Positions 6,711 to 44,274 of a stretch of 60,821 nucleotides of DNA are shown one piece after another (the stretch's first letter is position 1; each line of letters starts with the position of its first letter). This DNA is from a virus: IMG/VR virus record IMGVR_UViG_3300007643_000017, positions 1 through 60,821 of that record; one strand, 5' to 3'. Below the pieces are notes generated by a model. It was not told where the DNA came from. It made no database searches and saw nothing but the letters and a program-made list of their open reading frames with translations. Position numbers and translations under genes: made by a program.

Positions 6711-7439
6711 TCAGATAATGTCGTCGTGTGACGCGATCACGTCGTCGAAGCCCATGCGAATCTGGGCAGCCCGATAATACTTCGGGTCCATCTCTATGCC
6801 TATGAATTTGCGCCCACAGGCCTGTGCAGCTACTCCGGTGGCCCCTGAACCCATGAAGAGGTCAAGAACCGTCTCACCGGGCTCTGTGCTGTTCTCTATG
6901 TACGTTTGCATCAAAGATACCGGCTTCTCAGTCGGGTGGCTCTTTGGGCTCTTCGGATTGTTGTGATCCATGGGGAAGTCAAACTCTTCCGCTGTCTTGA
7001 ATCCTGCGTCGTTCAGAGCGAACGCTTTCCCTTTCCGGGCGAGCAGCGTGTACTCGACGTTCTTCATACCCCAACGGTTCGGTGTGGCGTTGTTCTTCTT
7101 CCAGACGAGCAGATTGTGAAGCTCGAAGCCTGCGGCCATAACCTTCGCCATGAGGCCGTTCTTGAGGCCGAGGAAGTTCGTCATCATGTAGACGTGTGCC
7201 TGCTCTCTGAGGACGCGATGAAGCTCCGGCAGGTACGTTTCCGGCTGTATGGTGTTGTGGGTGATCCCCATGGACGTGTCGTTCGACTCAAGGACGCCTG
7301 TCGGCCTGCGAGCGTCGTCCGGTGTGCCACCGCCAATTGTCTTGTATGGCGGGTCGAAGACGGCTGTGTCGATGCAACCATCCTCGAACAGGGCCATAAC
7401 TTTCATACAGTCGCCGAGATAGAGATTCGTGCCGGTCAT
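6711..7439 (-). CDS. DNA methyltransferase, beta-class N6-adenine/N4-cytosine (N6_N4_Mtase family)
   Basis: Motif IV is FDPPYKT near the N-terminus. HPTEKP and motif I (LDLFMGSGATGVAA) follow, which is the beta-class order. The protein ends ...SHDDII. Confidence 0.9.
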   Translation of the reverse strand: MTGTNLYLGDCMKVMALFEDGCIDTAVFDPPYKTIGGGTPDDARRPTGVLESNDTSMGITHNTIQPETYLPELHRVLREQAHVYMMTNFLGLKNGLMAKVMAAGFELHNLLVWKKNNATPNRWGMKNVEYTLLARKGKAFALNDAGFKTAEEFDFPMDHNNPKSPKSHPTEKPVSLMQTYIENSTEPGETVLDLFMGSGATGVAAQACGRKFIGIEMDPKYYRAAQIRMGFDDVIASHDDII

Positions 7440-7726
7440 ATGAGGTCATCCTGAGTGTAATCTGTTGTTGGCGCGGGTTCCCGGTCAGCCACGATCTGAG
7501 CTTCACGCTCGGCTCTGGCTTCCTGATAGACGGCGCACACTTTGGTCTGGTCGCCTTCGAGCGCCAGTGCAAGAGCGACTTCCAATTTCGCAGCCATCCA
7601 ACACTGCCAGCCTGTCGATGCTCTGGTACGAGTGCTGACCTGAAAGCCGTCTTCGGTCACAGCAATGTTCAATGCCGCAATCGTGCCGTCGTCAAGCTGG
7701 TTCTGGATAACGTCGATCAGAGTCAT
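7436..7726 (-). CDS. Hypothetical protein (96 aa)
   Basis: ATGA overlaps at both ends suggest translational coupling. It ends ...TQDDLI. Confidence 0.6.
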
Positions 7727-8079
7727 ATCAGATCGTCCAATTCGTCGTCGTCGATGTCTTTCTCTGGATCGAACTTGCCGCCAGCAGCCTCGTAGATGTC
7801 GGCAGGGTCCATGCCCTGTTCCGGGATGAAGCCGGACGGCAGCATGCCGAGAGCCGACATGTAGAGGTCAAGCATGGCCTCTTGTTCGGTCCGCTCGCTG
7901 GCTTCCACCTTGCGGAGTGAGACAACCTTGCGCAGGGTTTTGGTGTCGAAACCATTGCCCTTCGCCTCGGCATACACTTCCTTGATGTCGTCGGCGATTG
8001 CCTTCTTCTCTTCTTCGAGTCGCTCGATGCGTTCGATTATGGATCGTAGTTGATCGCGGGCTACAGACGTATCGGCCAT
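7723..8079 (-). CDS. gapR: GapR-like (DUF2312) nucleoid-associated DNA-binding protein with a C-terminal acidic extension
   Basis: [44 protein letters not shown]...[10 protein letters not shown] closely parallels Caulobacter GapR. About 40 extra residues end in ...ELDDLI. Confidence 0.9.
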
Positions 8080-8444
8080 CAGATCAGATCGTCGTTGTTG
8101 GCAGCCACGGTCCGAAGAGCCTCAGCTTCGTCTTTCCGGGTAGCCTTCTCTTCATCACTGACGAGATACGTCGGGTCGTATGCCGGTGGGCGCTCGTCTT
8201 CTTCATCTCCGCCAATCAGATCGTCGGGATCACCGAATATCTCAGCACCAGTTCCGGGCTCAACGTCCATAGGGGAACTGCCCCCTGTGCTGGCCATGAG
8301 TTCGTTCAAGAATGGCACCAGTTCTTTGGCGTTCTTGATGTCGAATTTTTCTGTCGCGGTTGGCGGCAGGCTGAGTTCCTTACGACGCTTTTCAGCATCG
8401 CCTTTGAGGTCAAAAAATTCGTTGTTTACTCCGTAGAATATCAT
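8079..8444 (-). CDS. Hypothetical acidic protein (121 aa)
   Basis: Coupled to its neighbours (TGATG). It has an internal DPDDLIGG and a C-terminal ...NNDDLI. Confidence 0.6.
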
Positions 8445-8448
8445 GGTC

Positions 8449-10074
8449 CTATTTCTCCGTGGTAGATAGCTGAGCGTCGTGGCTCAGATACATTGTAGTG
8501 TGGCCGAGAGCTTCCGCCAGAGCCAATTCGGCTCGTGCGCCTTTGCTCTCTGCGAAACCGGGAAGCATTACGATAGCATCAGCCTCGTGGCAAATCCACT
8601 CGCAATCTTCCCCGAGCGCATCGCGCAGACTGAACTCATGATCCTCTGCGGCCTTCGACTCGTCACCGTTGACATTGCCTTTGGAGATGTCCACGCCGTC
8701 GTGGCGTTCGACATCCCGGCGAGCCGGGTTGAATGGATTCCAGCCGCCCAAAATCATCCGCATTTCGGCGGCGTGGAATGCCGGGAAGTTGAACTCTTCG
8801 TAACCGCGCATCGGACCGGCGATATAAACACCGTCGCCTTCGAACTCTCCGGTGTTAGGTGCCAACAGTTTCAGCCACTGGACGTGCAACGGGTCCGTGT
8901 CAGAGTCCCAACCAAGGTCCATGCCTATCGAACTGCTGTCGTAGTGCTGTTCGATCAGTGCTACGCGTTTGGCTTCCAACTGAACGTTGTTGGCCGTGAT
9001 CCCAACCATGCTGCCGGGGTCAACTGCTCGGTACGAGTTCATCAACTGACCGGCCATGTGGAACTGGCCCCGCTCGTCAACGAGGTTGGCGACAACGTGC
9101 ATCACAAGAGACTCGACGTTCCAGATGCCGTCGTCGTTTCCGCAATTGAATTGGCGGGCGAGGCGAAGGAATTTTTTCTTCTGGCTCAGCATCACCGAAT
9201 CGTCAACAAGGAGTTCCCTTACCGACTTCGGCTCTGACGGGCGTTGACCCTTGTTAAACGCGAGGTCACGGACAAAAGAATTGAAGGTCCGCTGTATTCC
9301 TTCCGGCCACTTCTTCAACGTCTCTTGGGCCTTGTCTATCTCCGTCATAGCGTAGAAAACAATCTCTTCGGGGCTTTCGTTGGTCCAGCCGGAGAGAGGA
9401 ACCATGACCTCGTTCGGATGCAGGATCGGTGGGATCGAATCCCCTCGCCCGACATACCCGCCGCTGGCAAATCCCATGTTTGGGAAGAGACCGGACAGCA
9501 GTCCGTCAGTCTTGCCCTCTTGACGAGGCTTGAAGATCATTTCGACAGCTTCGTTGGCCAAGCGTTTCATGATGCGATCTTCGAGCGACGAGAGATCACA
9601 CGCGAAATTCTCTACGTCTGTCTCGCAATACGCACGGAGTTGTTCGTTGACCGGCTCGCCGAGGGCTTCGGCCATAACGTCAGCCGGATTCGATTTGTAG
9701 TCGCGATCCGGTTCGGCACGTCGGTCGTCACCGATGTTCCAATGGACAGAGTGCGAGAGTGCGACGGCGTTCCAGAGAATGTGGTCAGTGTGCATCAAGC
9801 CGCTGCCTTTCTGAATCGTGCCGTCTGGGAGATGCTTGTCGAGATCGCGATCCTCGCCGCGCATATACGCACGGAGATGGCGAAAGAGTGAACCCATGAT
9901 CTGACGTTGGCCCAGACCCTTCGACCAGTTCCACGGAGCGTACTTCTCAGCGCCGTGTTCAGCGACTCGAGCATAGGCTTCCATCATTTCTTCCATCGGA
10001 AGCAGATCGTATGGCAGGTTCGCCATCTTTTCGCGTTGTGCGCCGGTCTCGGATGCGGGATGTTCTTTGGTCAT
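8449..10074 (-). CDS. Three-part fusion: MazG-like dNTP pyrophosphohydrolase N-domain (DUF5664-type), unknown middle region, and DUF4406 (nucleoside 2-deoxyribosyltransferase-like) C-domain
   Basis: N-terminus: LPYDLLPMEEMMEAYARVAEHGAEKYAPWNWSKG...FRHLRAYMRGEDRD...HTDHILWNAVAL. C-terminus: VYIAGPMRGYEEFNFPAFHAAE...CEWICHEADAIVMLPGFAESKGARAELALAEALG. Confidence 0.65.
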   Translation of the reverse strand: MTKEHPASETGAQREKMANLPYDLLPMEEMMEAYARVAEHGAEKYAPWNWSKGLGQRQIMGSLFRHLRAYMRGEDRDLDKHLPDGTIQKGSGLMHTDHILWNAVALSHSVHWNIGDDRRAEPDRDYKSNPADVMAEALGEPVNEQLRAYCETDVENFACDLSSLEDRIMKRLANEAVEMIFKPRQEGKTDGLLSGLFPNMGFASGGYVGRGDSIPPILHPNEVMVPLSGWTNESPEEIVFYAMTEIDKAQETLKKWPEGIQRTFNSFVRDLAFNKGQRPSEPKSVRELLVDDSVMLSQKKKFLRLARQFNCGNDDGIWNVESLVMHVVANLVDERGQFHMAGQLMNSYRAVDPGSMVGITANNVQLEAKRVALIEQHYDSSSIGMDLGWDSDTDPLHVQWLKLLAPNTGEFEGDGVYIAGPMRGYEEFNFPAFHAAEMRMILGGWNPFNPARRDVERHDGVDISKGNVNGDESKAAEDHEFSLRDALGEDCEWICHEADAIVMLPGFAESKGARAELALAEALGHTTMYLSHDAQLSTTEK

Positions 10075-13611: not shown

Positions 13612-14109
13612 CTACCCCTGCTTGAGGAAGTTGACAAGCTCTTCACCCTTGAGCGTGACGTGCAACGCCCTTGGTGACAGCAGGCGACGGTTGCGAAGGA
13701 CTTCCACGACTTGGCTGAACGCAGCCCCGCCACAGTCCCCGGTGAGGCCTTCGTGGATCGCGACGAGAGTGTCTTTCTCGTATCCGCTAAGGTTTGCCGC
13801 ATAGTGTTCTGGCTTGACGTTCTGCCAGTCTGGCGCATTCTCACCGACACCGGGGTCGTCATCAAGCAACCACACGTGCCGGACAGAGCCTTCGTCGTCT
13901 TTGACCTCGGTCCGATGCACCGGCAGTGAATCAAAATGCTCCGTTGGCATCTCGGTCGGCGGTCTGTCGTACATCACTGGCAGGATCATCGACCCCGGCG
14001 TACCGTGGGGCCGTGCGCCTCGGTAGTTGTAGACGTGTCGGATACCGGCAGATTGGAACTGAGGTCCCGGGAGATTGGAGGGCGCATAGATTTTCAGAGC
14101 GTTGCTCAT
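13612..14109 (-). CDS. Hypothetical protein (165 aa)
   Basis: ORF with an ATGA overlap to the downstream gene. No family recognised. Confidence 0.5.
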   Translation of the reverse strand: MSNALKIYAPSNLPGPQFQSAGIRHVYNYRGARPHGTPGSMILPVMYDRPPTEMPTEHFDSLPVHRTEVKDDEGSVRHVWLLDDDPGVGENAPDWQNVKPEHYAANLSGYEKDTLVAIHEGLTGDCGGAAFSQVVEVLRNRRLLSPRALHVTLKGEELVNFLKQG

Positions 14110-15061: not shown

Positions 15062-15267
15062 AGCGGTTTCTTTCCATAAAGAGCTTCGCGATGGCTGGTG
15101 AGAGACACGTCGTAGGGTCCAACGCATGTGTTGCATTTGTACGGCTGATAGCCGGACGTTGATTTACAACCGGTGAGAATCAGCAGAGCGACAATTGCCA
15201 GAGCAAATGATACTCCGTAGATCGGGAACCACGGGCGGCGTTTCTTCGGGGGGTCGAAATGGGTCAT
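15058..15267 (-). CDS. Small lipoprotein (69 aa)
   Basis: FALAIVALLILTGC|K is a signal anchor plus LTGC lipobox. It is the first gene after the 15.3-kb control region. Confidence 0.6.
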   Translation of the reverse strand: MTHFDPPKKRRPWFPIYGVSFALAIVALLILTGCKSTSGYQPYKCNTCVGPYDVSLTSHREALYGKKPL

Positions 15268-24714: not shown

Positions 24715-27507
24715 TTAGATCAGGTCGTCGTGTTTGGGCATGTCTGGGACATCGGCCTCAATGTCCGGCGCGTTCGGGCTGTCGATCTCGGCGAAGCCTT
24801 GCTTCAACTCCCGAGGCGACCAGTTTCCGAAGGTCGATACAAGCTCTTTCTGGGAGCCGACGCCATGGAAGTGCTTCTTCTCCTGCGTCCGGTTCCAGTG
24901 GTCGGCCTGATCGGCAGCAGCATTGATCTGGTTGAGTGTCATCATCTCCGGCGAGCCGATCCGACCCATGACCTGAGTGAAGACCTCTTTGCCGAATGAC
25001 CGAGTGCGATAGACCAGACGGTCGTCGTCATCGTCCGGGAAGCTCGTATCTTCCCCACGGTAGGCCCAACCGATCTGGTGCAATGGAACGGGCACTGAGG
25101 CCCACTCGTCAAGCTCACCAGCCAGAACCTGAGCCGGGGTCTCGACCTCGACCAGTTCTATCAGGCGCTCATGCTCTTCAATCGACTCTGGATCAGTCAG
25201 GTCAAGCGGAAGGTCTTCGTCAGGCCCCCACTCTTCGCGCAGGGCTCTATAAGCATGCACGGCCTCTCCGACGATCTGCGGATACTCTTTTTTGAACGCC
25301 GGGTTGTCGATACGGTCTCGCTTGGTTTTGGTCACAAGCATTGGCCAATAGCGACGTGCGCCGGACGGGTCTTTGAGATATTCGCCGTCGTTGATCGTAC
25401 CGATGCAGATCGACTGCCGTGGGTACTCCATGGTGTTCTTTGCATAGGCCACACGAACCTGCTCTTCACTGCGAGACAGGAACGCCTTCATGGCGCTCGA
25501 TTCGGACTTGTTGTAGGCCTTCATCTCGCCAAGCTCGGCAATGATTTTCCCCTGCAAGCCTTCGACCACTTTGGCGTTGTCGCCGAGGTCCACGTTGAGG
25601 TCGGTATGGAACTCTTTGAATCCCATTATCTCGGTGAAGGTCGATTTGCCCTCTCCGCCTTGGGGTGCTTGGAGAACCATCATATTGTGGAACTTGAGCC
25701 CCGGTTCGAATTGCCGACCGACGAGAGCGATCATTGCCTTCGTGAAGGCCTCTGCGCTGTACGCGGACTGCGGCAGGCCGAGGTATCTGTGAGCTACGGT
25801 ATGCAGCCGTTCGACTCCATCCCACTCGTCGGCGAACCGGGAGAACATGTCTCTGATCGGATGGAAGGGGCGCTCAAGGGCCGACAGCATGACGCCGGAC
25901 TTAATGTCCCGGTCGGTCACGTTGATGTTGTAGCCGCCCTTCTCGGAGAGCATGGCCCGGATCGTGTCGTCTAGTCGGTCGGTCAGGGTGTCGCCGCCAC
26001 GTTTCGGTTTCCGGCAGACGAAATCCGCCAGATCGGGAAGCTGCGTCCTGATCGTCGTCTTGAGAACCGGCACGGCCAGAAATTCGTTGTACCCAAACTT
26101 GCGTTTCAGGCGCTTGTCGTTGCGGATGATCTTGCGGACATTCGAGAGGGTGGACTTGAGTCCTTCCGTCTTATCGAAGTCGAGATTGCCGAACCAGTCG
26201 GGGTCATATTCGATGCCGTCATCTGCGGCCTTGGTCTTCTTCTTTTTCTTCTTGTCAACTTTTTTGCTACTCTCCTGAGTCGACGAATCTCCTGCGTCGA
26301 TTTCGTCGTCGTAGAGATCATTGATGTCGTCCGTCTGCACGTCTTCGCTGTCGTCCTCTTCCACGTCTATGCTGTCGCGGTCGTGTTCGAAGTCGCCCTC
26401 TTCCACATCGTCTTCTGTGAAGTCGAGAATGGCGGCGTACTTCTCGGCGTTCGCTTGCGCACGGTATCCCGGGTCTTTCTTCGCGAACTCCATCATCTTT
26501 GTCCACGACGGTCTCTTCGCCATGGGTGTGTCGTCGTCTTCGTCCTCGGTGTTGAATTTATAGAGGCGCACGAGGTCCCACGCATTCACGTTCTGCTCGG
26601 CTATCGGATCAGATGTGTGGTTGCTGTAGATGAATGTATCGTTATCATAAATGACCATGCCCGAAGAGCCGGTTGATCCGACAGGCGTATAGCGAGGTTC
26701 ACCCCCGGCTTCGCCATCGTCCGCTGGCACAATCTCGTCAGCCAGAAAAGTCTCGATTGCGAGGGAGATCGAATAAGCCCGACAGAAGATGCCGACAGGC
26801 CCTTCCTTCTCAAGCGGGTTCTCCGCTTTCTGCGATGTGTCACGAACGTTCTTCTCGCGCTCGGGGTTGAACGGCAGGTCGGAGAAGTCCGTCCAGTCGC
26901 CGACGAACTCGTCGAGGATTTTGTTCGGGTCGAGAGCCTTGCCTTTGTTCGCATGGAACTTGAACGCACCGTCCTTCGAAGCGGTCGGCTTGAACATCAT
27001 CTGCGCCATCCGGTGTGATACCGGGTCGATGGCTGTCATGTCTGGATTGATGTAGCTCGATACGATGCGCGAGAGCGGACCATGTGTGTGCCGGTCAACG
27101 CCCTCGGAAAGCAGGATGACGATTCTAAATTTCGGATGATCTGGATTGTGCGAGCGACTCGTCTGGATGAAATACTCATAGTCGTGAAGCCAGTTGCCGG
27201 ACTTCTGCTGCAACTCTTCGAATAGCTCTTCGGCGTTCTCGTCAACGTCGATAGTCAGGATGTCGCGGAAGCCAACGTCTTCCTTTTTCCGGCTGCCACC
27301 CTTACACGGCGCTGCGAAGAAGAAGCCATCGGCCTGCTTCAATTCCAGCTTCTGCGCCAGCGGCATTTTGGAATAGAACTTGTATGTCTCGGACGAACGC
27401 ACTGGACGCCGGAGCATTTCTTGGAAGTCGCGCCATGACTTCTGTTTGTTCGTCACTTTGCCGAGGTTCTTACGCCCTTCGGAGTAACGGATAATTTGAT
27501 CGTGCAT
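24715..27507 (-). CDS. DNA primase fused to a VirE-type P-loop helicase/NTPase
   Basis: The N-terminus is primase-like (DILTIDVDENAEE). An acidic linker and a KKKKKT stretch follow. The C-terminus has the VirE-like Walker A QAPQGGEGKSTFTEIMG. It ends ...KHDDLI. Confidence 0.8.
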   Translation of the reverse strand: MHDQIIRYSEGRKNLGKVTNKQKSWRDFQEMLRRPVRSSETYKFYSKMPLAQKLELKQADGFFFAAPCKGGSRKKEDVGFRDILTIDVDENAEELFEELQQKSGNWLHDYEYFIQTSRSHNPDHPKFRIVILLSEGVDRHTHGPLSRIVSSYINPDMTAIDPVSHRMAQMMFKPTASKDGAFKFHANKGKALDPNKILDEFVGDWTDFSDLPFNPEREKNVRDTSQKAENPLEKEGPVGIFCRAYSISLAIETFLADEIVPADDGEAGGEPRYTPVGSTGSSGMVIYDNDTFIYSNHTSDPIAEQNVNAWDLVRLYKFNTEDEDDDTPMAKRPSWTKMMEFAKKDPGYRAQANAEKYAAILDFTEDDVEEGDFEHDRDSIDVEEDDSEDVQTDDINDLYDDEIDAGDSSTQESSKKVDKKKKKKTKAADDGIEYDPDWFGNLDFDKTEGLKSTLSNVRKIIRNDKRLKRKFGYNEFLAVPVLKTTIRTQLPDLADFVCRKPKRGGDTLTDRLDDTIRAMLSEKGGYNINVTDRDIKSGVMLSALERPFHPIRDMFSRFADEWDGVERLHTVAHRYLGLPQSAYSAEAFTKAMIALVGRQFEPGLKFHNMMVLQAPQGGEGKSTFTEIMGFKEFHTDLNVDLGDNAKVVEGLQGKIIAELGEMKAYNKSESSAMKAFLSRSEEQVRVAYAKNTMEYPRQSICIGTINDGEYLKDPSGARRYWPMLVTKTKRDRIDNPAFKKEYPQIVGEAVHAYRALREEWGPDEDLPLDLTDPESIEEHERLIELVEVETPAQVLAGELDEWASVPVPLHQIGWAYRGEDTSFPDDDDDRLVYRTRSFGKEVFTQVMGRIGSPEMMTLNQINAAADQADHWNRTQEKKHFHGVGSQKELVSTFGNWSPRELKQGFAEIDSPNAPDIEADVPDMPKHDDLI

Positions 27508-27937: not shown

Positions 27938-28393
27938 ATGTCACTTGAAGAAGCACTCGCAGCCAATACCGCTGCGCTGGAAGCCAACACTGCTGCGCTG
28001 TTGAAAGGCGGCTCCGCGAAACCGGCAACCAAAACCTCGTCGAAAGCTGAGACCTCGGAAGAGGCTGACGCAGAGAACGAAGCAGCCGCCAAAAAGGCAG
28101 CAGCCGACAAGAAGAAAAAGGCCGCAGCAGCCAAAAAGAAGAAGGGTCCGACAAAGGAAGAACTCGTCGCGCTGTTCTCAGGCTATCTTGCTGAGGTCGA
28201 TGGTGACGACGACGCCGTGGCAGAGCGCCGCGCCGAACTCAAGAAGATCAACGAATACTACGAAGTTGATCGCATCACCAACGCTGACCCGTCCGTCTGG
28301 GCAGAAGCAATGGGCTTCCTGAACCAGTTCATCGAAGGCGAAGACCCGTTCGCGGGTGAAACCGACGAAGACGACGACGGATCGCTCGTCTAA
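27938..28393 (+). CDS. Lys/Ala-rich (histone-H1-like) protein with an acidic C-terminal domain
   Basis: SD aaggaaggaatccacATG. AAKKAAADKKKKAAAAKKKKG tract. Ends ...DEDDDGSLV. Confidence 0.6.
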   Translation: MSLEEALAANTAALEANTAALLKGGSAKPATKTSSKAETSEEADAENEAAAKKAAADKKKKAAAAKKKKGPTKEELVALFSGYLAEVDGDDDAVAERRAELKKINEYYEVDRITNADPSVWAEAMGFLNQFIEGEDPFAGETDEDDDGSLV

Positions 28394-28394: not shown

Positions 28395-29675
28395 ATGCCC
28401 GGTGCCCACAGCAGACTTAGTCCATCAAGCGCACATCGTTGGAGGAAGTGTCCTCCATCGGTGAACGCCTGCAAGGACATTCCTGATACGTCAGGATACG
28501 AGGCCGCTGAGGGCACCGTGTTCCACCACTTTGCTGCGTTCTGTGTCGAGTTCGGGTTCGACCCCGAGGTCTTCATAGGGCGCAAGCAGACCGTCCCCTA
28601 CACCGAGTACACCGAAGACGGAGATCGCATTGACGGCGACTACGTGATCGAGTTCAACGGCGAGATGGCCGACAGTATGCGGAAGGGGTTGGAGTTCATA
28701 AATGACTGGCAAGATGAAGACACTATCCTGTTCGTGGAAGAGCGAGTTGACCTTTCTCCATGGTTGGGTGCTGACCAATTTGGTACTTCTGACGTTGGGG
28801 TGGTTGATCCTGTTGCTCGTCGCATACTCGTGTTCGATTGGAAGTACGGACGAGGTGTGCCGGTTAGCCCAGATTGGAATGACCAACTGATTCTCTACTG
28901 TCTGGGAGTCTGGAACAGCTACGCCCGCAAACTGTTTGACGACGATCCGACAGACATCACGATAGAAATCGTCATCGACCAACCACGTGCGCCCGGTGGC
29001 GGAGGTGTCTGGAAGACGACGATGCGTCGTATCCTCAAAGAAGGGGAAGAGATCATAAAGGACGCTGAGGCGACCGACGATCCGAACGCAGAATTTCAAG
29101 CCGGTGAGAAGCAGTGCCGTTTCTGCCCGCTGGCAAAATCCGAAGACGGTTGCCGCGCACTCGACGAGTTCGTGGAAGAGATGTGCGGACTGGATTTCGA
29201 CTCGTTGCTCGAAGACGATTTCGATGCTATAGCCGCAGACCCGGAGAAGATGAACCCGACGAACCGGGCGCTGGTTCTTCTCAACAGGAAACTGATTGAA
29301 CGCTGGATGGATGGACTACATGACCAAGTAATGCGTGACCACAAGCGAGGCCTGCCGACGCCGCTACAGAAGGTCGTCGTCGGACGGAAACCAGCCCGCA
29401 AAGTTCGAGCGAACCAGATGGATCGCTACGAGAAGATTTTGAAAAAGACCCTCGGCGAGAAGGCGTATCAGTCTAAGATACTGACACCGACCGCCGCCGA
29501 GGAAGCATTGGGCAAGAGAGTCTTCGAACCGCTCTTGTCTCGATTCTTGGAGAAGCGTGAGGGGAAACCCTCGCTCGTCCCCGAGACTGATTCCCGAGAC
29601 GCTATACCGGACGTTACGGATGGCTTCGACGAAATCGACGAAGGGTTCGATGACAACGAAACTGCTTTGATATGA
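28395..29675 (+). CDS. DUF2800-type PD-(D/E)XK (Cas4-like) nuclease
   Basis: The N-terminus RLSPSSAHRWRKCPPS...AAEGTVFHH and the C-terminal Cys cluster CRFCPLAKSEDGC are typical of this family. It precedes the DUF2815 and PolA genes. Ends ...NETALI. Confidence 0.75.
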   Translation: MPGAHSRLSPSSAHRWRKCPPSVNACKDIPDTSGYEAAEGTVFHHFAAFCVEFGFDPEVFIGRKQTVPYTEYTEDGDRIDGDYVIEFNGEMADSMRKGLEFINDWQDEDTILFVEERVDLSPWLGADQFGTSDVGVVDPVARRILVFDWKYGRGVPVSPDWNDQLILYCLGVWNSYARKLFDDDPTDITIEIVIDQPRAPGGGGVWKTTMRRILKEGEEIIKDAEATDDPNAEFQAGEKQCRFCPLAKSEDGCRALDEFVEEMCGLDFDSLLEDDFDAIAADPEKMNPTNRALVLLNRKLIERWMDGLHDQVMRDHKRGLPTPLQKVVVGRKPARKVRANQMDRYEKILKKTLGEKAYQSKILTPTAAEEALGKRVFEPLLSRFLEKREGKPSLVPETDSRDAIPDVTDGFDEIDEGFDDNETALI

Positions 29676-29692: not shown

Positions 29693-30349
29693 ATGGCAGA
29701 TAAAAAAGAAGCACCACTAGGCCGCGTCGTATTGCGCGATGTACGCCTATCCTACGGCCACATCTTCAAGCCCGGTAAAGGCATGAAGGATGATGACGGC
29801 AACGTGCAGCCGGGTAAGTTCGGAGCGAACCTCCTGATGGACCCTGACACCGATGTCGGCAAGGCAAACCTCAAGCGTCTCAAAAAGGCGAAAGAGGATG
29901 TCATGAAGGCCAAGTGGGGCGATAAGCAGCCCAAACTCAAAGCCGAAAAACTCTGCACCCGAGACGGTAACGAGGAAGAAGGTGAAGAGTATCAGGACAT
30001 GTATTTCGTGTCCGCCCGTAACCCGGACCAACCGTCGATCATCGACAACCGGAAGGGCAAAAACGGCAAATGGATTCCGCTGAAATCTTCGGATGGACGC
30101 CCGTATTCAGGTTGCTACGTCAATGCGATTGTCACGCTCTGGGCGCAGGACAATGATTACGGCAAGCGTGTGAACGCAGTGCTGGAATCCGTTCAGTTTC
30201 TCAAGCATGGCGAAGCGTTTGGAGCGGCCCCTGTCGATCCGAACGACGAGTTCGACGACGACGATGTCGAAGGCGCTGACGTTGAGGAAATTGACGATCC
30301 GAATGACAGCATCGACACAGAAGACGATGACGACGACGGTCTCGTATAA
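29693..30349 (+). CDS. DUF2815-type ssDNA-binding protein
   Basis: VRLSYGHIFKP...YSGCYVNAIVTLWAQ...VLESVQFLKHGEAFG, then an acidic tail ...EDDDDDGLV. SD aaaaaggaaaatcgaaaATG; an alternative ATG is at 29672. Confidence 0.75.
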   Translation: MADKKEAPLGRVVLRDVRLSYGHIFKPGKGMKDDDGNVQPGKFGANLLMDPDTDVGKANLKRLKKAKEDVMKAKWGDKQPKLKAEKLCTRDGNEEEGEEYQDMYFVSARNPDQPSIIDNRKGKNGKWIPLKSSDGRPYSGCYVNAIVTLWAQDNDYGKRVNAVLESVQFLKHGEAFGAAPVDPNDEFDDDDVEGADVEEIDDPNDSIDTEDDDDDGLV

Positions 30350-30444
30350 GCCTCGTTGTCGGGGTTGATCTCCCCCGGCAACCCGCCGCCGCGTAGCTTC
30401 CTTCCTGCGTGGCGGCACCCTCTCTCCAATCCGACAGGTGACGC

Positions 30445-30609
30445 ATGCCCAAGAAATCAGACACTGCCGAAGATCGAATGACGAACGCAGCCAAATGGGT
30501 GATCGCAGCGATCCTCGTAGCAGGCGCAACGGCGCTCTATGTGGGCTATCAAGCCATAGCGGCCATCGTCCGGCTCGTGAGCCCCGCCATACAACATTTG
30601 GTGTCCTAA
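30445..30609 (+). CDS. Possible small TM protein (54 aa)
   Basis: Hand translation: MPKKSDTAEDRMTNAAKWVIAAILVAGATALYVGYQAIAAIVRLVSPAIQHLVS. The stop abuts the polymerase ATG. Confidence 0.35.
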   Translation: MPKKSDTAEDRMTNAAKWVIAAILVAGATALYVGYQAIAAIVRLVSPAIQHLVS

Positions 30610-30611
30610 AT

Positions 30612-32768
30612 ATGCCGCAAGTTTCGGACGTAGTCAGAAGAGCGCAAGAGGAACTGATCGAGAGCCAGACCAAGAGTACGTCCGGCCCGAAGGATCGCTT
30701 GCACCACGACTTTGAAACATTCTCGACCGTCGATCTGACAAAGACCGGAACGGATGTTTACGCACGTCATCCCGACACCGAAATTCTGATGTGCGCCCAT
30801 GCGATAAACGACGACACCCCCGACATATGGGTGCCGGTCGAAGGCGAAGAGATTCCGTCTGAACTGGAAGAAGCGATTGAGGACCCGAACGTCATCAAGT
30901 TCGCTTGGAACAAACCCTTCGAATGGCACATCTGGAAACACGTGTACGGCGTCGAGATTCCACACACGCTCTGGCGCGATCCTATGGTTATGGCCATGAC
31001 GTTGTCGCTCCCCGGCAAGTTGGAAAAGGCCGGTGACATCATCGGCATTGACGAAGACAAGAAAAAGATCAGACGCGGCAAGGCATTGATGCGAAAATTC
31101 TCTATGCCGAGGAAGCCGACAAAAACCCTCAAGCACACGCGAGTTCATTGGCACATGGAGCCCGAGGACTGGGAAGAGTACAAAGAATACTGTATCGGTG
31201 ACGTTGAGGCCGAGAGAGCCGTCTGGAAGAAGATCAGGCGCTACACCATGCCTATGCACGAGTGGTCCTTGTGGGTCCTCGACCAAGTCATCAATCAGAA
31301 CGGCATCCCAATTGATTCCGAGATGGTGGACAACGCCGTCGCGATCTACGAACACATCCGAACAGATCGTATGGCGAGAATGATCCGCCTGACCGGACTC
31401 GAAAATCCCAACTCGAACGTCCAACTTCTGCCGTGGCTCAAAGAGCATGGCTACCCATTTGACGATCTCAAAAAAGGTCACGTAGAGAGAGCCGTCGTCC
31501 GCTGTGACGAAGAGATGACTGAGAACTTCGACGACCCGGCGATCATCTACGAACTGGAAGACCTGAAAGAGGTTTTGGAACTCCGGCTCGAAGCCAATGC
31601 CTCGTCACCGAAGAAGTTCCACTCTCTTCAACGGTCGGTTGCGGAAGACGGCCTGCTCAGGAACTGCTTCCAGTTCGCTGGCGCTCAACGCACTTGGCGT
31701 TGGGCCGGTCGCATGCTGCAACCGCAAAACCTGCCCCGACCGGAGCGAGAGTTCGAAGACGCGATTGAGTTCTATGCGAACATCGTCAAACACCACAGCC
31801 CCGAGAACATCGACTTCATCTTCAATGACCCCATGGGGCTGCTCAAGTCTTGCATCCGACCCGTTGCCCGGGCACCAGAAGGGAAGCTGTTTATCGACGC
31901 CGACTTGAACGCGATTGAGAACCGAGTTCTCGGTTGGATCGCTGACGACCGGAAAATCCTTGAGGTCTTCGAGAAGGGTCAAGACCCGTACATCGCCTTC
32001 GCCCAGTACATGTTCCACCGGACGTATGAAGACCTTTGGCACGACTACAAAGAGAACGGCGACAAGGAAGCCCGAACGACAGCGAAACCCGGCGTGTTGG
32101 GTTGTGGCTACATGCTCGGAGCCGGAGAGGAACGGGTCAACCGGAAGACCGGCGAGATCGAAGCCACCGGCCTGCTCGGCTACGCGTGGAACATGGGGGT
32201 CAAACTGACTCACGATGAGTCGGCCCTGTCAGTGAAAGTTTTCCGAGAGACGTTCTCCGAGGTCAAGGACTTCTGGTACGCTATCGAGAAGGCGATGAAA
32301 AAATGTATCAGGACCGGCAAGAAAGTCGAGTTCCGCATGTTCGAGTTTGACATCAAGGGTCCGTTCTGCCGGATCAGGTTGCCCTCTGGCCGGTACCTGC
32401 ACTACTGCCGTCCGCGCCTCGAAGATAAGAAAACTCCATGGGGCGAGATGCGACCAACAATCACATACGAAGGGCTCAATGCGCAGGGCCAGTGGGTGCG
32501 GATTCAAACGCATCCCGGCAAGATCACTGAGAACGTGGACCAAGCGATCTCTCGCGATCTTCTGGCGCACGGCATGATGCTGGCGCACAAAGAAGGACTC
32601 GACATTCGGCTTCACGTTCACGACCAAATCGTCGGTCTGTCTGACGAGGACCGCGCTGACAAGGAACTGGCGATCTTGCAAGACTGCATGCGCTCAGTTC
32701 CGCTGTGGTGCCCCGGCATGCCTCTTGATTCTGCCGGTTTCACATCCAAAGTCTTTACAAAAGATTGA
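30612..32768 (+). CDS. Family-A DNA polymerase with a 3'-5' exonuclease domain
   Basis: Exo I HHDFETFS. Motif A DADLNAIENRVLG, motif B RTTAKPGVLGCGYMLG, motif C HVHDQIV. The ORF-track 5' extension from 30438 is rejected. Confidence 0.9.
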   Translation: MPQVSDVVRRAQEELIESQTKSTSGPKDRLHHDFETFSTVDLTKTGTDVYARHPDTEILMCAHAINDDTPDIWVPVEGEEIPSELEEAIEDPNVIKFAWNKPFEWHIWKHVYGVEIPHTLWRDPMVMAMTLSLPGKLEKAGDIIGIDEDKKKIRRGKALMRKFSMPRKPTKTLKHTRVHWHMEPEDWEEYKEYCIGDVEAERAVWKKIRRYTMPMHEWSLWVLDQVINQNGIPIDSEMVDNAVAIYEHIRTDRMARMIRLTGLENPNSNVQLLPWLKEHGYPFDDLKKGHVERAVVRCDEEMTENFDDPAIIYELEDLKEVLELRLEANASSPKKFHSLQRSVAEDGLLRNCFQFAGAQRTWRWAGRMLQPQNLPRPEREFEDAIEFYANIVKHHSPENIDFIFNDPMGLLKSCIRPVARAPEGKLFIDADLNAIENRVLGWIADDRKILEVFEKGQDPYIAFAQYMFHRTYEDLWHDYKENGDKEARTTAKPGVLGCGYMLGAGEERVNRKTGEIEATGLLGYAWNMGVKLTHDESALSVKVFRETFSEVKDFWYAIEKAMKKCIRTGKKVEFRMFEFDIKGPFCRIRLPSGRYLHYCRPRLEDKKTPWGEMRPTITYEGLNAQGQWVRIQTHPGKITENVDQAISRDLLAHGMMLAHKEGLDIRLHVHDQIVGLSDEDRADKELAILQDCMRSVPLWCPGMPLDSAGFTSKVFTKD

Positions 32769-33231: not shown

Positions 33232-33507
33232 ATGGTCACAGAAGCGGAAATCGAGAAACCAACGGTTGCCCTTGCGACGATGCACGGCTGGTTCGTCAGG
33301 AAGGTCGAATGGCCGGGACGCCGTGGTGCCCCCGACAGAGTCTTCATCAAAGACGGACGCGTCGTCTGGATCGAGTTCAAGTCTCCGACCGGCAAGCCGA
33401 CAAAACAGCAGTTGCTTGAGATCAGGCGCATGCGCGAAGCCGGAGCCGAAGTCCATATCTGTAATTCACTCGAAGACGCGAGAGGCATCCTTGGCATTAA
33501 ATCGTAA
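33232..33507 (+). CDS. VRR-NUC domain nuclease
   Basis: GAPDRVFIKDGRVVWIEFKSPTGKPTKQQLLEIRRMREAGAEV. Confidence 0.85.
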   Translation: MVTEAEIEKPTVALATMHGWFVRKVEWPGRRGAPDRVFIKDGRVVWIEFKSPTGKPTKQQLLEIRRMREAGAEVHICNSLEDARGILGIKS

Positions 33508-35008
33508 AAAACTTCCGCTGTTCGATCTCGAAAGCCGTGAACTGATCTTCGGCCCGCCAGACGAGATACTGACATATGAGGATTTCGAACCATATCAAAG
33601 ATGGATGTCCAAGCTGTGCATCAATCTCAAGTACGTTTACCTCGGAGCCGACATGGGCCTCGGGAAGACGGCGACTGCGTTGAAGGCAGCCAGCGTCTGG
33701 TTGAAGAAGGGCAAGTGTCGAAAGATTCTGATTATCGCCCCGTTGAATGTTGCGAACCACACTTGGCCTGACGAAATCGCCAAGTGGGACTTTGCACGGC
33801 CAATGAAATACTCAGTCATCACAGGCACCGAAGAACAGCGGCTGTGGGCGCTCAATCGAGATGCCGAGGTCTACATAATCAATCGCGAGAACGTGGTCTG
33901 GCTATACAAGCATCTCAATCCGCACGAGACTCCAGAAGAGTTGGAAAACCCGAACTGGCCGTTCGACGGATTGATCTACGACGAAGCCTCTCGGCTCAAG
34001 GGCGGAGCGAAGAAGACAAAACAGACTGTCAGAAAAGATGGTACTTTATCTGCCAAAAATGTCTCGGAGTTCGGAGCCCTGCGGCGCATACGACCGAAGT
34101 TCAAACGCATCGTGCAGTTGTCGGGGACTCCAGCCCCGAACGGATTGATCGATTTGTGGGGACCGTTCTATTTGCTCGATAAAGGTTCCCGGCTCGGGTC
34201 CTCGAAAGACGCGTTCTTGAAGCGGTGGTTCAGCTACGACAAATGGACCTACAAGTGGGAACCCCACGAGCATGCGAAGAAGGATATTCTCGACCGGCTC
34301 AAAGACATTTTCTTCACGCTCCGGTCTGAGGATTATTTGACGTTGCCGGAATTGAAGATCGTTGATCGGTGGGTTCATCTGACGGAAAAACAAAAACGAC
34401 AATACGACGATTTCAAGGCAGAGATGGTTTTGGAAGAGCATGATATTGAGGCCGTCAACAACGGCGTTCTCTGCAACAAGCTGCTGCAATTCGCCAACGG
34501 ACACGTCTATAACGAAGAACAGGAAGCGATCAAAATCCACGACCAGAAACTGAAAGAGCTTGAGAGCATCGTGGAAGAATCCGCAGGGAAACCGATCCTG
34601 TTGGCGTACTCGTATGCCTTCGACCGAGACGCGATCAAGAAGAAATTTCCATGGGCTCGCATCTTCGGAGAGAAAGAATCTGACATGCGTGATTGGAATG
34701 AGGGCAAGATCAGAATGCTGATTACTCACCCGGCCTCAGCAGGGCACGGCTTGAATTTTCAGTTCGGCAGCAATATAGCTGTTTGGTATGGCCTCAACTG
34801 GAGTCTCGAATTGTACCAACAGTTCATCAAGAGACTCCACCGTCGTGGCCAAAAGGAAGGAACTGTTTTCATGTATCGTATTCTCGCCCGGGGAACATTT
34901 GACGAGCACCAAGTCGAAACGCTCAAACAAAAAGGTGTAACCCAAGACGACATCATTGACGCTGGCACTGCTGAGATCGGAGAGACCCCATGGCCGATAG
35001 CAGCATAG
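33491..35008 (+). CDS. SNF2-family helicase (probable TTG start overlapping the VRR-NUC 3' end)
   Basis: FEPYQ, GADMGLGKT (motif I), YDEASRLK (II), LSGTPAPNG (III), RLHRRGQ (VI). The first ATG lies after the Q motif. The TTG at 33491 has SD gagagg. Confidence 0.8.
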   Translation: MALNRKKLPLFDLESRELIFGPPDEILTYEDFEPYQRWMSKLCINLKYVYLGADMGLGKTATALKAASVWLKKGKCRKILIIAPLNVANHTWPDEIAKWDFARPMKYSVITGTEEQRLWALNRDAEVYIINRENVVWLYKHLNPHETPEELENPNWPFDGLIYDEASRLKGGAKKTKQTVRKDGTLSAKNVSEFGALRRIRPKFKRIVQLSGTPAPNGLIDLWGPFYLLDKGSRLGSSKDAFLKRWFSYDKWTYKWEPHEHAKKDILDRLKDIFFTLRSEDYLTLPELKIVDRWVHLTEKQKRQYDDFKAEMVLEEHDIEAVNNGVLCNKLLQFANGHVYNEEQEAIKIHDQKLKELESIVEESAGKPILLAYSYAFDRDAIKKKFPWARIFGEKESDMRDWNEGKIRMLITHPASAGHGLNFQFGSNIAVWYGLNWSLELYQQFIKRLHRRGQKEGTVFMYRILARGTFDEHQVETLKQKGVTQDDIIDAGTAEIGETPWPIAA

Positions 35009-35637
35009 ACGACGCACTCACTGCCGTAACTGCGGCCAACCGATTTGCCAAAGGTGGCAACGCGGACGCCGGTCGAGTCGTCGAAGGTGTTACCCTGACG
35101 TGGCTCTCCCAAGTGTTCGAAATGACACCTTACGAATTGAAGAAGAAGCTGCGCAATTGCCCGACTAAACCGGCCCGAGACGGTCGCACTGGCGCATACT
35201 ACGATTTGCCAACGGCTGCCGCGTATCTCGTGACACCCCGGATCGACGTTGACGAGTACATGAAAAACGTCAAGCCGACTGACATGCCCGCGCATCTCCA
35301 AGACCAGTATTGGTCAGCGATGAACAAAAAGCAGAAGTGGGAAGAGGCGGCTGGCCACTTGTGGCGCAGCGAAAAAGTTCTCGCCGTCTTTGGTGATGTC
35401 TTCCAGTTGGTCAAGGGATCGATTCAGTTGTGGCCTGACGCGGTCGAACGTGCAGTCGGGATGAACGCCGAACAGAAGCGCACTCTGCGAGCCCAGTGTG
35501 ACGGCCTGCAAAAAGACATCCACACTCGCCTGCTGCAAATGCCTGACGATCAGCACACCGGCCCGCAGCTTGATGAATTTGAAGCGCCGTCCTCAGAGAT
35601 CGGCCCGGAAGCGACAGTTCACGATGACCTTATTTAA
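34990..35637 (+). CDS. Putative small terminase subunit (Nu1/DUF1441-like)
   Basis: It sits immediately upstream of, and overlaps, the large terminase gene. The N-terminus is HTH-like (LTWLSQVFEMTPYELKKKL). Ends ...VHDDLI. Confidence 0.5.
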   Translation: MADSSIDDALTAVTAANRFAKGGNADAGRVVEGVTLTWLSQVFEMTPYELKKKLRNCPTKPARDGRTGAYYDLPTAAAYLVTPRIDVDEYMKNVKPTDMPAHLQDQYWSAMNKKQKWEEAAGHLWRSEKVLAVFGDVFQLVKGSIQLWPDAVERAVGMNAEQKRTLRAQCDGLQKDIHTRLLQMPDDQHTGPQLDEFEAPSSEIGPEATVHDDLI

Positions 35638-42523: not shown

Positions 42524-42562
42524 GGCGGCGTTTAACCCCCAACCTAACAAGGAAACGAAACC

Positions 42563-43630
42563 ATGGAACAGACTGTTTACGGTTCATCCACACTTCTGGG
42601 CGTTATGCGCGAAGACAAGAACATGCAGCCCCCTGCACGTTACTGGCTCGACATGTTCCCAACCGCCATCAATTTCGACACGGAAGAAATTGATTTCTCG
42701 AAACTCACTGGTACGCGCAAACTGGCCCCGCTGGTTGTACCGACTGCTCAGGGTGTGCCAATCTACACCAACGCTGAACGTCGGTCCGTTGTCCGTCCTG
42801 CTTACGTCAAGCCGAAAGACGCCGTCACTGCTACTCGCATGATGCGCCGTGTTGCTGGCATGGGTGAGCTTGGTTCGAACGACCGCGCACTGAGCCCTGC
42901 ACAGCGCTACGCAGCTATCGTTGCTGACATCCTGCGCGAGCATCGCTTCTCCATCGAACGTCGTTGGGAATGGCTTGCTTCCGAAGCAATCCAGAACGGT
43001 CGCGTCACTCTCGAAGACGACCGCTACCCTCTGACGGTTGTTGACTTCGAACGCGATGCTGCTCATACGGCTACGCTGACTGCTGGTAACTTCTGGGGTG
43101 ACGCTGGTGTGTCAATCCTTGAATCAGTTGAAGGCTTCCGCAAGATCGTTCGCGATGCTGCATTCGGTGGTGTTACCAACCGCATGACTATCGGTTCCGA
43201 CGTTTGGGACGTGATGCGCAAGGATCAGGAAATCCGCGAATTGCTCAACACGAACTACCGCCTGAACTCCGGCGCTGAACTCAACATGGGTCTTCGCGAT
43301 CCTCTTGAGCCCGGTCTGGAAGTCGAGCGCGTCGGCAAGCTGTCAGCCAACTTGGAAGTGTACGTCTACTCCGACTACTACCAAGACGAAGCTGGCGCGA
43401 CCGTGCCGTTCATGTCCACGAAAGACATTGTCCTCACGGGCAGCAACATTCAGGGCGTGAAATGTTTCGGAGCCATTCAGGACATCTCAGCGAATCTTCA
43501 ATCGCTGGCGATCTTCCCGAAAATGTGGCCTGAACAGGACCCAAGTGCGACATTCATCATGTCCCAGTCAGCACCGCTGATGGTCCCTGTTAACCCCAAC
43601 AACACCTTCAAAGCGACAGTTCTCGCTTAA
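42563..43630 (+). CDS. Major capsid protein, gpE family
   Basis: The N-terminus ...YWLDMFPTAINFDTEEIDFSKLTGTRKLAPLVVP is characteristic of Phage_cap_E proteins. A strong terminator follows. Confidence 0.85.
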   Translation: MEQTVYGSSTLLGVMREDKNMQPPARYWLDMFPTAINFDTEEIDFSKLTGTRKLAPLVVPTAQGVPIYTNAERRSVVRPAYVKPKDAVTATRMMRRVAGMGELGSNDRALSPAQRYAAIVADILREHRFSIERRWEWLASEAIQNGRVTLEDDRYPLTVVDFERDAAHTATLTAGNFWGDAGVSILESVEGFRKIVRDAAFGGVTNRMTIGSDVWDVMRKDQEIRELLNTNYRLNSGAELNMGLRDPLEPGLEVERVGKLSANLEVYVYSDYYQDEAGATVPFMSTKDIVLTGSNIQGVKCFGAIQDISANLQSLAIFPKMWPEQDPSATFIMSQSAPLMVPVNPNNTFKATVLA

Positions 43631-43647
43631 AGGTCTACGATCCGAAG

Positions 43648-43675
43648 AGCCGGGGCTTGGTCCCCGGCTTTTTTC
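43648..43675 (+). terminator. Rho-independent terminator after the capsid gene
   Basis: agccgggg-cttggt-ccccggct followed by tttttt. Confidence 0.85.
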
Positions 43676-43722
43676 GAACTCCCCCTGTCTACAAAAAGCC
43701 AACTATTGAAGAGGATTCTCAC

Positions 43723-44274
43723 ATGGCAAAACTCGATCTCATTGCGGTGAACAACATCACCCGCACAATCAAACCCGGCGTTGCAGGCAAAGGCCCGGGC
43801 GACTTCGGCACTCCACCGGAAACAAAAATCATCGCACCGAAGACTCGCTTCGTCGCCGTTGACGAAGACGAATACGATTTCTTGCTCGGTCAGGGTGCTG
43901 CGGTAGTGCCGGTCGATGCTGCTGAAAAAGCCAACATCAGCGAAGAAGACATCGCTGCTGCTGAAAAGGAAGCTGCTGAAAAGGAAGCTGCTGAAAAGCT
44001 GGCTGCCGAAGAAGCTGCCGCTGCCGAAGCCGAAGCTGCGCAAGAAGCTGCTGATGCCGAAGCTGCTGCTACCAAAGAAGCTGCTGAGAAGGAAGCTGCT
44101 GAAAAGGAAGCTGCTGAAAAGGAAGCTGCTGAAAAGGAAGCTGCTGAAAAGGAAGCTGCTGAGAAGGCTGCTGCCAAGGAAGCTGCCGAAGCCGAAGCTG
44201 CTGCCAAAAAAGGCGGCTCGACTCCAGCCAAAAAAGGCGGTAAGACCGAAGAGAAAGAATCTGATTTGGTCTAA
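43723..44274 (+). CDS. Protein with a small N-terminal domain plus a long (EAAEK)n helical repeat; gpFI position
   Basis: SD gaagagga. The (KEAAE) repeats are encoded by 15-bp tandem units. Ends ...EEKESDLV. Confidence 0.65.
   Translation: MAKLDLIAVNNITRTIKPGVAGKGPGDFGTPPETKIIAPKTRFVAVDEDEYDFLLGQGAAVVPVDAAEKANISEEDIAAAEKEAAEKEAAEKLAAEEAAAAEAEAAQEAADAEAAATKEAAEKEAAEKEAAEKEAAEKEAAEKEAAEKAAAKEAAEAEAAAKKGGSTPAKKGGKTEEKESDLV
43954..44215. repeat. Tandem 15-bp repeat GAAGCTGCTGA[AG]AAG: 2 units at 43969-43998, 6 units at 44077-44166, plus degenerate GCT/GAA-rich flanks
   Basis: Read directly. It generates shadow ORFs on both strands. Confidence 0.9.

Follow-up and report, generated by a model that had tools for sequence, protein, structure and literature searches.

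Why should ten unrelated, largely DNA-handling proteins of a single phage end in almost the same few residues? The question is raised by IMG/VR virus record IMGVR_UViG_3300007643_000017, which we analyzed over its whole stretch of 60,821 nucleotides (hereafter the window) and which belongs to an uncultured Casjensviridae (Chi-like) siphovirus. A preliminary description had reported six predicted proteins ending in DD[LI]I and four ending in an acidic run followed by x-L-[IV], and all ten C-termini read identically when we re-checked the translations. Pfam and PHROGs searches assigned an N6_N4 DNA methyltransferase (MTase), a GapR_DNA-bd protein, a VapE primase-helicase, a small terminase subunit (terS, phrog_141/DUF1441), a DUF2800 PD-(D/E)XK exonuclease, and an Enc34/gp2.5-type protein that binds single-stranded DNA (SSB) among the carriers, which are as follows:

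6711..7439, minus strand: N6/N4 DNA methyltransferase, PF01555 at residues 23-226; tail ..SHDDII at 6714-6725
7436..7726, minus strand: 96-residue protein with no function assigned; tail ..TQDDLI (from the translation) at 7439-7450
7723..8079, minus strand: GapR-like DNA-binding protein, PF10073 at residues 7-78; tail at 7726-7737
8079..8444, minus strand: 121-residue protein with two motif copies; terminal ..NNDDLI at 8082-8093
24715..27507, minus strand: VapE-type primase-helicase, PF05272 and phrog_256; tail ..KHDDLI at 24718-24729
27938..28393, plus strand: 151-residue protein, first gene of the rightward replication operon; tail ..DEDDDGSLV at 28379-28390
28395..29675, plus strand: DUF2800/PD-(D/E)XK (Cas4-like) exonuclease, PF10926 and phrog_69; tail ..DDNETALI at 29661-29672
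29693..30349, plus strand: Enc34/gp2.5-type SSB, PF10991 (E = 1.4e-32) and phrog_112; tail ..DDDDDGLV at 30335-30346
34990..35637, plus strand: terS, phrog_141 and DUF1441; tail ..VHDDLI at 35623-35634
43723..44274, plus strand: (EKEAA)n repeat protein; tail ..EKESDLV at 44260-44271

These endings are enriched in the window far beyond chance. DD[LI]I closes 6 of the 67 predicted proteins, against 0.002 expected from composition, and four further proteins end in the acidic run plus x-L-[IV]. Five C-terminal tetrapeptides were identical, while 20,000 draws of random internal windows never gave more than 2. In an unsupervised reduced-alphabet test the top C-terminal class was acidic-acidic-aliphatic-aliphatic (6 observed versus 0.08 expected), and under a maximum-count null only 1 of 2000 resamples reached 6. 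Internally, DD[LI]I occurs just twice in the 18,672 residues of the window proteome, as DPDDLIGG of the 121-residue protein (DDLI encoded at 8214-8225) and as TQDDIIDAGTA of an SNF2-family helicase. The helicase copy (TQDDIIDA, residue 561) was ruled out as a tail copy because it is a conserved part of the SNF2 family, reading TQDAITDA, TQDRISDA, or TQDDITEA in relatives. The six DD[LI]I tails are written in six different codon strings, and nucleotide identity among them is 0.76 across the four tail codons versus 0.32, about random, in the 33 nucleotides upstream. As different genes use different codons for the ending, it is the peptide and not the DNA that is under selection; the preliminary description had likewise held the peptide, and not a DNA repeat, to be conserved. 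The six codon strings and the low upstream identity rule out both gene conversion and a DNA repeat. Within the 6711-8444 cluster, three genes have a final Ile codon and stop (ATA TGA, or ATC TGA TG) that overlap the ATG of the next gene, which may bias codon choice there. As the origin of the tails this overlap was rejected, because it cannot account for the other seven, among them those of VapE, terS, and the plus-strand genes.

We then considered where the tails sit. That of the MTase lies on an extension of about 12 residues past the last domain helix and that of the GapR-like protein on a 40-residue extension with the terminus ..DDDELDDLI, so that in both, as first described, the tail lies beyond the recognizable domain. 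In the 151-residue protein a histone-H1-like Lys/Ala-rich run (AAKKAAADKKKKAAAAKKKKG) precedes the acidic tail, and the repeat protein consists mostly of (EKEAA)n, followed by a Lys/Gly-rich stretch and then the tail. In the AlphaFold2 (AF2) model of SSB, the predicted local distance difference test score (pLDDT) is above 95 in the core and drops from 69 to 56 over the last 25 residues; the MTase model scores 95 through residue 230 and then declines to 63, with 49 at the tail. In both models the tails are disordered and lie outside the folded domains. Docking in cis is not predicted, which is weak evidence against it because it comes from pLDDT values alone.

These observations bear on an explanation that needs no common receptor, in which every acidic tail would fold back onto its own protein's DNA-binding surface, or onto that of an adjacent copy, and tune DNA binding as a DNA mimic. 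Such a role has been described for T7 gp2.5, T4 gp32, and Enc34 ORF6. The carriers whose function could be assigned mostly bind or process DNA (a further three have none assigned), and acidic residues make up 34% of the last 30 residues in the tailed proteins versus 14% in the other window proteins. In addition, removal of the acidic, unstructured tail of the Enc34 SSB (ORF6/DUF2815) changes its DNA selectivity, and in crystals this tail is docked in trans on a neighboring SSB (PMC5686142). However, the tails of VapE (..PDMPKHDDLI), terS (..PEATVHDDLI), and the 96-residue protein (..TDYTQDDLI) contain only two acidic residues, too few for a mimic, and the element that is conserved is the terminal aliphatic pair, common to unrelated folds within the genome. 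Furthermore, the low AF2 confidence at the ends of SSB and MTase yields no predicted docking in cis, and the discrete tandem copies described below argue for a modular binding unit. We therefore regard DNA mimicry as unlikely.

To what extent the tails outlast the sequence around them was examined in relatives. None was found at the DNA level by megablast against GenBank phages, and a single-sequence IMG/VR scan matched none; relatives were reached via protein searches, with homologue searches started from three tailed window proteins, the primase-helicase, the MTase, and SSB. By protein identity of the family-A DNA polymerase (PolA), the closest cultured relative is Synechococcus virus S-ESS1 (55%), followed by Ruegeria phages DSS3-P1 and V16 (50%), Xylella phages Sano and Salvo (41%), and Proteus phage pPM_01 (37%); the Salmonella Chi group is also among the closest by this measure, and all belong to the Casjensviridae. 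The alignments show that the tails are retained in orthologues at 30-70% identity while the linkers diverge and that more distant homologues have no tail. Most VapE orthologues at 30-50% identity end in an acidic residue plus [LV][IV] (for instance NDDLI, PDDLI, ENDVI, WSDLV, IDHLI, TDDLI), and four end in DDLL[SG]. The 24 of the [LV][IV] type close with I (19) or V (5), have L (21) or V (3) at position -1, and in 17 cases have D at position -2; the entropy of the last two positions is 0.74 and 0.54 bits, and positions -4 to -9 reach 2-3.5 bits. The 783-residue homologues that form the bulk of the more distant VapE matches carry no tail. The MTase tail is present on a C-terminal extension in 40 of the 44 closest homologues (45-72% identity) versus 3 of 76 more distant ones, most of which stop right after the catalytic domain. 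Among the 73 closest listed SSB homologues (P0241-P0313), I or V is terminal in 63 and L precedes the terminal residue in 55, after an acidic run.

The same was seen with the remaining carriers. The 151-residue protein keeps its position in all relatives, without a family assignment, and its positional orthologues end in DDSLV (L001), DDALV (L003), DDGVV (L004), EESPI (L012), DNPMV (L013), GGDLM (S-ESS1), DDILG (DSS3-P1 gp79), and DDDDM (pPM_01). Exonuclease orthologues end in EDDLV (L003), NDGLI (L004), VDDLLG (DSS3-P1), ENLI (S-ESS1), and YDDLVDD (L001), and have lost the tail in L012 and L013. The terS orthologues end in GHDLI, FGGLV, IEALI, AMDLV, or VAALV; DSS3-P1 has a degenerate tail on this protein (SDLDV), and pPM_01 has none. 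The repeat protein lies directly 3' of the major capsid gene, the position of lambda gpFI, and its positional analogues in DSS3-P1 (gp55, ..GEDLLG) and pPM_01 (gp54, ..DADDDL) are tailed, Ala/Lys/Glu-rich proteins that do not align with it, while Sano gp60 is untailed. Viewed by genome, L001 and L019 (which together form one relative genome) carry tails on terS (GHDLI), SSB (DDDLV), the 151-residue protein (DDSLV), the exonuclease (YDDLVDD), VapE (NDDLI), MTase (LDDLI), the GapR-like protein (..DDEDPLI), a 133-residue protein (..AVDDLI), and a 103-residue protein (IADLI). L003 has -LV ends on all five core proteins. L004 has lost the VapE tail and keeps five others (on terS, SSB, the exonuclease, and the 153- and 105-residue proteins), and L012, L013, and L020 show a similar pattern. 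Because the same orthologues switch between the DD[LI]I and the acidic x-L-[IV] forms among relatives, the two are best read as one motif.

Two carriers appear to have newly acquired the motif. The GapR-like orthologue in L019 keeps the extension and ends in ..DDDDEDPLI; in DSS3-P1 and S-ESS1 the GapR homologues finish with the domain itself (..ALGMS and ..ALGMI). The closest orthologue of the 121-residue protein (P0362, 133 residues, L019) has three copies (..EADDLIGGDDDLIGG....AVDDLI), and distant members of this family have the N-terminal domain only. Only the window and its closest relative have the extension on the GapR-like protein and DDLI copies in the 121-residue family, which argues that the motif was gained on new carriers, as is typical of short linear motifs. 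The 96-residue protein gave no Pfam or PHROG match and has no clear orthologue in L019. Altogether, retention of the tail while the linker diverges was observed for VapE, SSB, MTase, the GapR-like protein, terS, the exonuclease, and the 121- and 151-residue proteins, and the comparison shows that, in this Casjensviridae lineage, no fewer than ten unrelated DNA-handling proteins have acquired and retained the motif, with a loss now and then.

The alignments also show that the wording of the tail differs between lineages and changes together on all carriers of a genome. The window clade uses -DDLI or -xLV (-LI/-LV). The annotated coding sequences of DSS3-P1 end in DDLLS (gp30), AALLA and EALLA (two MTases), EDLLG (gp55 and VapE), DDLLG (SSB and exonuclease), DDILG (gp79), and SDLLA (gp80); in this phage the reduced-alphabet class 'ahhs' was found at 8 C-termini versus 0.15 expected, which none of 2000 draws reached. 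L017 uses -LL[SG] or -LMS, and Sano has -DDIGL on SSB, a 169-residue protein and, near its end, terS. In pPM_01 the tail is an acidic run plus one hydrophobic residue (-DD[ILM] or -DVF), found on SSB (EEDDI), a 160-residue protein (DDDDM), the post-capsid gp54 (DDDL), a PAPS-reductase-like protein (FDDL), a recombination exonuclease (EDDM), and a non-orthologous primase (ETDVF). Since this primase is not an orthologue of VapE and is nevertheless tailed, the tail follows the role and not the protein family. When tails were shuffled among genomes within each orthologous family, the similarity of tails within a genome (1.57 identical positions of 3, versus 1.06 in the null) was reached in 0 of 20,000 permutations.

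In addition, the motif is repeated in tandem, two or three times over, in many MTases with the LL[GSA] version, such as EPDIDALLGLDTEPDIDALLA and FDIDDLLCPNLDIDDLLGPAPSAESLLS, and P0143, P0159, P0160, and P0164 have two or three each. The 133-residue orthologue of the 121-residue protein has the arrangement DDLIGG-DDLIGG-...-DDLI. As Gly follows the internal copies, the unit would also work internally when a Gly comes next, and this fits a short amphipathic turn capped by Gly or by the chain end.

The versions and the tandem copies are relevant to the possibility, raised in the preliminary description, of a shared degron, read by a protease or adaptor of host or phage that would set when early and middle proteins are removed. 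Hydrophobic C-termini with a free carboxylate are typical determinants for ClpX and tail-specific proteases, and the carriers are mostly early or middle gene products. On the other hand, SSB, the primase-helicase, and terS are needed in quantity through replication and packaging, acidic residues precede the end, unlike in ssrA-type LAA tags (ClpX C-motif 1), a C-terminal degron needs neither internal tandem copies nor the Gly, and the parallel is with the T7 tails, whose role is docking. Genome-specific versions on non-homologous proteins, together with the tandem copies, fit a common receptor and argue against both a degron and an acidic tail acting purely in cis. We thus consider a degron very unlikely.

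The tails are nearly absent from structural proteins, the gpFI-position protein being the one that has it, as had been noted before, and the carriers span replication, methylation, nucleoid, and packaging functions. Two of them are packaging- or head-associated (terS and the gpFI-position protein), and flexible linkers that lead to a short common C-terminal peptide on unrelated proteins are also the architecture of encapsulin cargo loading, so the tail might be a targeting tag that loads DNA-protecting proteins into the HK97-fold head. However, a 930-residue helicase, SSB, and an exonuclease are implausible inside a capsid filled with 60 kb of DNA, and the wording is unlike that of encapsulin loading peptides; this explanation is extremely improbable.

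The reading that we favor, and hold to be rather probable, is that the tails make up a single short linear motif for docking, and that one receptor, co-evolving with them, reads it. This reading draws on the disorder, the retention despite linker divergence, the repeated independent gain and multi-copy arrays, and the coordinated change of wording. The motif would consist of a flexible, usually acidic linker plus [DE]-[DE/x]-aliphatic-aliphatic, either at a free C-terminus or internal with a Gly after it. All tails would bind one receptor co-evolving with the phage, which would gather the primase-helicase, SSB, exonuclease, MTase, GapR-like protein, terS, and accessory proteins at the site of phage replication and packaging; tandem copies, as in the MTases and the 121-residue protein, would give higher avidity or compete for the receptor. 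The preliminary description had likewise proposed a phage-wide short linear motif leading to one hub: the motif on disordered extensions stands at the peptide level, and one receptor fits the versions and tandem copies, though we infer it from these patterns.

The nearest known system is that of phage T7, in which gp2.5 and gp4 each have an acidic tail, with an essential Phe at its end, that docks on basic patches of the DNA polymerase gp5. The T7 gp2.5 tails bind both polymerase and helicase (PMC5686142). The window phage resembles T7 in that its gp2.5-fold SSB and its primase-helicase both carry a disordered acidic tail closed by a hydrophobic residue, and in that it has its own family-A polymerase; the combination of tailed SSB, tailed primase-helicase, and family-A polymerase was found in the window, L001, L003, L012, L013, L017, DSS3-P1, S-ESS1, and pPM_01. 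The differences are that these phages end in two aliphatics (or LLG, IGL, or a single aliphatic) instead of Phe, that they have about ten carriers, including MTases, a GapR-like protein, terS, and a head-associated protein, and that they show tandem copies and lineage versions; binding to the polymerase would here be by analogy. When T7 was used as a control, only the two known tails were recovered among its 52 proteins (gp2.5 ..EDGDF and gp4 ..NDTDF), and roseophage SIO1 gave a single tail of the SSB-tip type (gp16 ..EIPFG). The docking reading would widen the T7 principle from two proteins to about ten.

Which protein would read the tails? Two untailed products of the rightward block were considered together with other candidates:

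30438..32768, plus strand: family-A DNA polymerase (PolA, PF00476), untailed, with the conserved end ..SKVFTKD
33266..35008, plus strand: SNF2-family helicase (Pfam), untailed, a secondary receptor candidate

PolA is tentatively ranked first, as a possible receptor, because it is always present and never tailed (it was present and untailed in every related phage examined), because of the T7 precedent, and because the non-orthologous primase of pPM_01 is tailed. The groove of the Enc34-type SSB comes next and is rather unlikely, about as unlikely as VapE or another phage protein. In the unassigned early window proteins, Pfam and PHROGs revealed no clamp or PDZ/TPR-type reader; the matches were limited to pyrophosphatases, a topoisomerase-like protein, a repair exonuclease, and a MazZ-like fusion. 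Across the 30 window proteins covered by Pfam and/or PHROGs no sliding-clamp family was found, roughly 35 others, mostly small or structural, lying outside the scan. The gain and loss of tails across genomes (loss on VapE of L004; tailed and untailed islands, see below) provided nothing decisive on the receptor.

Several observations weigh against the docking reading. The covariation of versions comes from only about three to four independent switches, and as related genomes are not independent, the P value of the permutation test is optimistic. Within the -LI/-LV clade, last-residue agreement is only weakly above the null (0.556 versus 0.445; 791 of 20,000 permutations). The expansion is weaker in the gamma-proteobacterial relatives: pPM_01 falls short of significance under the maximum-count null, and in Sano only three tailed cases are seen, from our own gene calls. 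Window PolA and T7 gp5 are too diverged for the tail-binding basic patches to be placed. Finally, tails were found on integrase-AlpA-VapE islands of Alphaproteobacteria (L011 7770-13236, L018 7111-11672, and L023 7671-13068), and the flanks read around these three islands contain no PolA or SSB.

VapE is tailed in these three islands and untailed in the Pseudahrensia island (L022 7428-12682). L018 and L023 encode a second tailed small protein after VapE (YAcAr ..YGDLI and a 106-residue protein ..ADDLI, respectively), L011 has the tailed VapE alone, and some islands bear defense-like cargo (type III restriction-modification, or ORC-CDC6-like with PRTase-CE). Tailed islands with no polymerase in the flanks read are awkward for a receptor encoded by the same element and leave room for a receptor that is a host protein or, for the islands, a helper-phage protein, with the tails plugging into the cellular replisome. 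Possible host receptors are the readers of the host SSB C-terminus, host SSB itself, and the beta clamp. Besides the islands, some tails recall the outline of the SSB tip DDDIPF, namely those of Sano SSB (DDDDDDIGL), the SSB homologue P0355 (DDDDEIPF), and SIO1 gp16 (EMEIPFG). The pockets that bind the bacterial SSB tip and the beta-clamp pocket are, however, very conserved, and a conserved pocket predicts one wording, yet at least four versions exist; -LI (Thioclava L023) and -LLG (Ruegeria DSS3-P1) both occur in elements of Rhodobacterales hosts. Moreover, the tails do not have the Gln-Leu start of the clamp motif QL[SD]LF, and the island flanks are short, and a helper phage could supply the receptor; the islands could be satellites exploiting the receptor of a helper phage. 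Overall, a host or helper-phage receptor seems to us a doubtful, though not negligible, candidate.

Like the bacterial SSB tip, the tails are short acidic-hydrophobic peptides with a free carboxylate on a disordered linker and would organize many genome-maintenance proteins, but the topology is reversed: bacteria have one tailed protein and many partners, while the window has ten tailed proteins and presumably one partner. No window tail contains Pro-Phe, which appears only in rare SSB relatives (P0355, EIPF). With clamp-binding motifs (the PCNA-interacting peptide, or PIP box; the T4 gp43, gp33, and gp55 tails for gp45; QL[SD]LF) they have in common that many unrelated proteins would meet one hub, and MTase tails show hydrophobic-x-x-hydrophobic-hydrophobic spacing (IEDLI, LDDLI, IDALL) similar to that of the PIP box, whose core in FEN1 is LDDFF. 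In contrast to these motifs, the tail profiles have neither a conserved Gln nor an aromatic pair, and the enteric versions (DDI, DDM) cannot be clamp motifs.

The preliminary description knew of no account of this motif, which holds in part. A T7-type tail on SSB and primase-helicase is already known, and Enc34 ORF6, a direct homologue of the window SSB, has an acidic tail ending in ..WDEDEV (deduced from the published primer); the published work treats the tail as a property of SSB and does not mention the same ending on other phage proteins (PMC5686142). The apparently new elements are the extension to about ten proteins (MTases, the GapR-like protein, terS, the exonuclease, the head-associated protein, and small proteins), the lineage versions, and the tandem arrays: the literature searched (acidic tails, phage short linear motifs, SSB-tip mimicry, Casjensviridae, and Chi-like roseophages) yielded precedents for SSB and T7 alone and no prior description of a multi-protein tail.

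If one receptor reads the tails, a four-residue ending would predict membership of the replication and packaging machinery, including for the 96-, 121-, and 151-residue proteins, and would allow phage interaction networks to be mapped cheaply in metagenomes from sequence alone. The two-tail contact of the T7 replisome would then be a general organizing principle, and the tails a bacterial-virus case of short linear motifs that arise from scratch, with receptor and ligands changing together. They would also hint at how methylation and packaging couple to replication, and the lineage versions would be a compatibility code relevant to phage recombination and to satellites that exploit helper phages. 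More speculatively, and as an idea that we put forward with reserve, Casjensviridae-like phages may possess a clamp-free hub-and-tail network analogous to PCNA and the PIP box, in which one phage-encoded receptor, reading a fast-evolving and lineage-specific wording, would couple replication, methylation, nucleoid remodeling, and packaging in a single factory, and in which islands with such tails would plug their replication proteins into the hub of a helper. Any protein could then acquire the wording from scratch, as the MTase, the GapR-like protein, the terminase, and small regulators with two or three copies appear to have done. Cultured relatives, for example DSS3-P1 on Ruegeria pomeroyi DSS-3, give direct experimental access.

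The 60.8-kb window has three strand blocks in a lambda/Chi-like gene order, with tail-fiber and lysis genes followed by the leftward early block and then the rightward block. The latter encodes the 151-residue protein, the DUF2800 exonuclease, the Enc34-type SSB, the family-A polymerase, the SNF2 helicase, and terS, and after terS a GpA-type TerL, portal, protease, decoration protein, major capsid protein, and tail genes. The host is probably an alphaproteobacterium, given the GapR-family protein and the roseobacter relatives. TerL (35498-38746, plus strand) and its relatives have conserved non-acidic ends (..LAEKLA, ..LAEKLG, ..LGELLG, ..LASALA) with a superficial likeness to the LLG tails; they are probably the portal-binding end, as the analogy with lambda gpA suggests. 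In the early block, a 541-residue fusion (8449-10074, minus strand) joins a dATP/dGTP diphosphohydrolase N-domain (PF18909, MazZ-like) to DUF4406, and two further pyrophosphatase/NTP-pyrophosphohydrolase genes lie near it (10720-11598 and 14106-15122, both minus strand), which together suggest nucleotide-pool remodeling or a modified base.

The record of S-ESS1 (L009 and L010, NC_052968.1) contains many apparent frameshifts, and its VapE, exonuclease, PolA, SNF2, tape-measure protein, and RNR genes are each split. Its stated cyanobacterial host looks doubtful because its closest relatives are roseophages. As for PolA itself, tblastn alignments of the window protein begin at residue 86-88, and the true start may be about 85 codons downstream, and in L004 a 176-residue open reading frame directly 3' of PolA (4215-4745) repeats the last 21 residues of the polymerase (20 of 21 identical) and is a partial duplication of its end.

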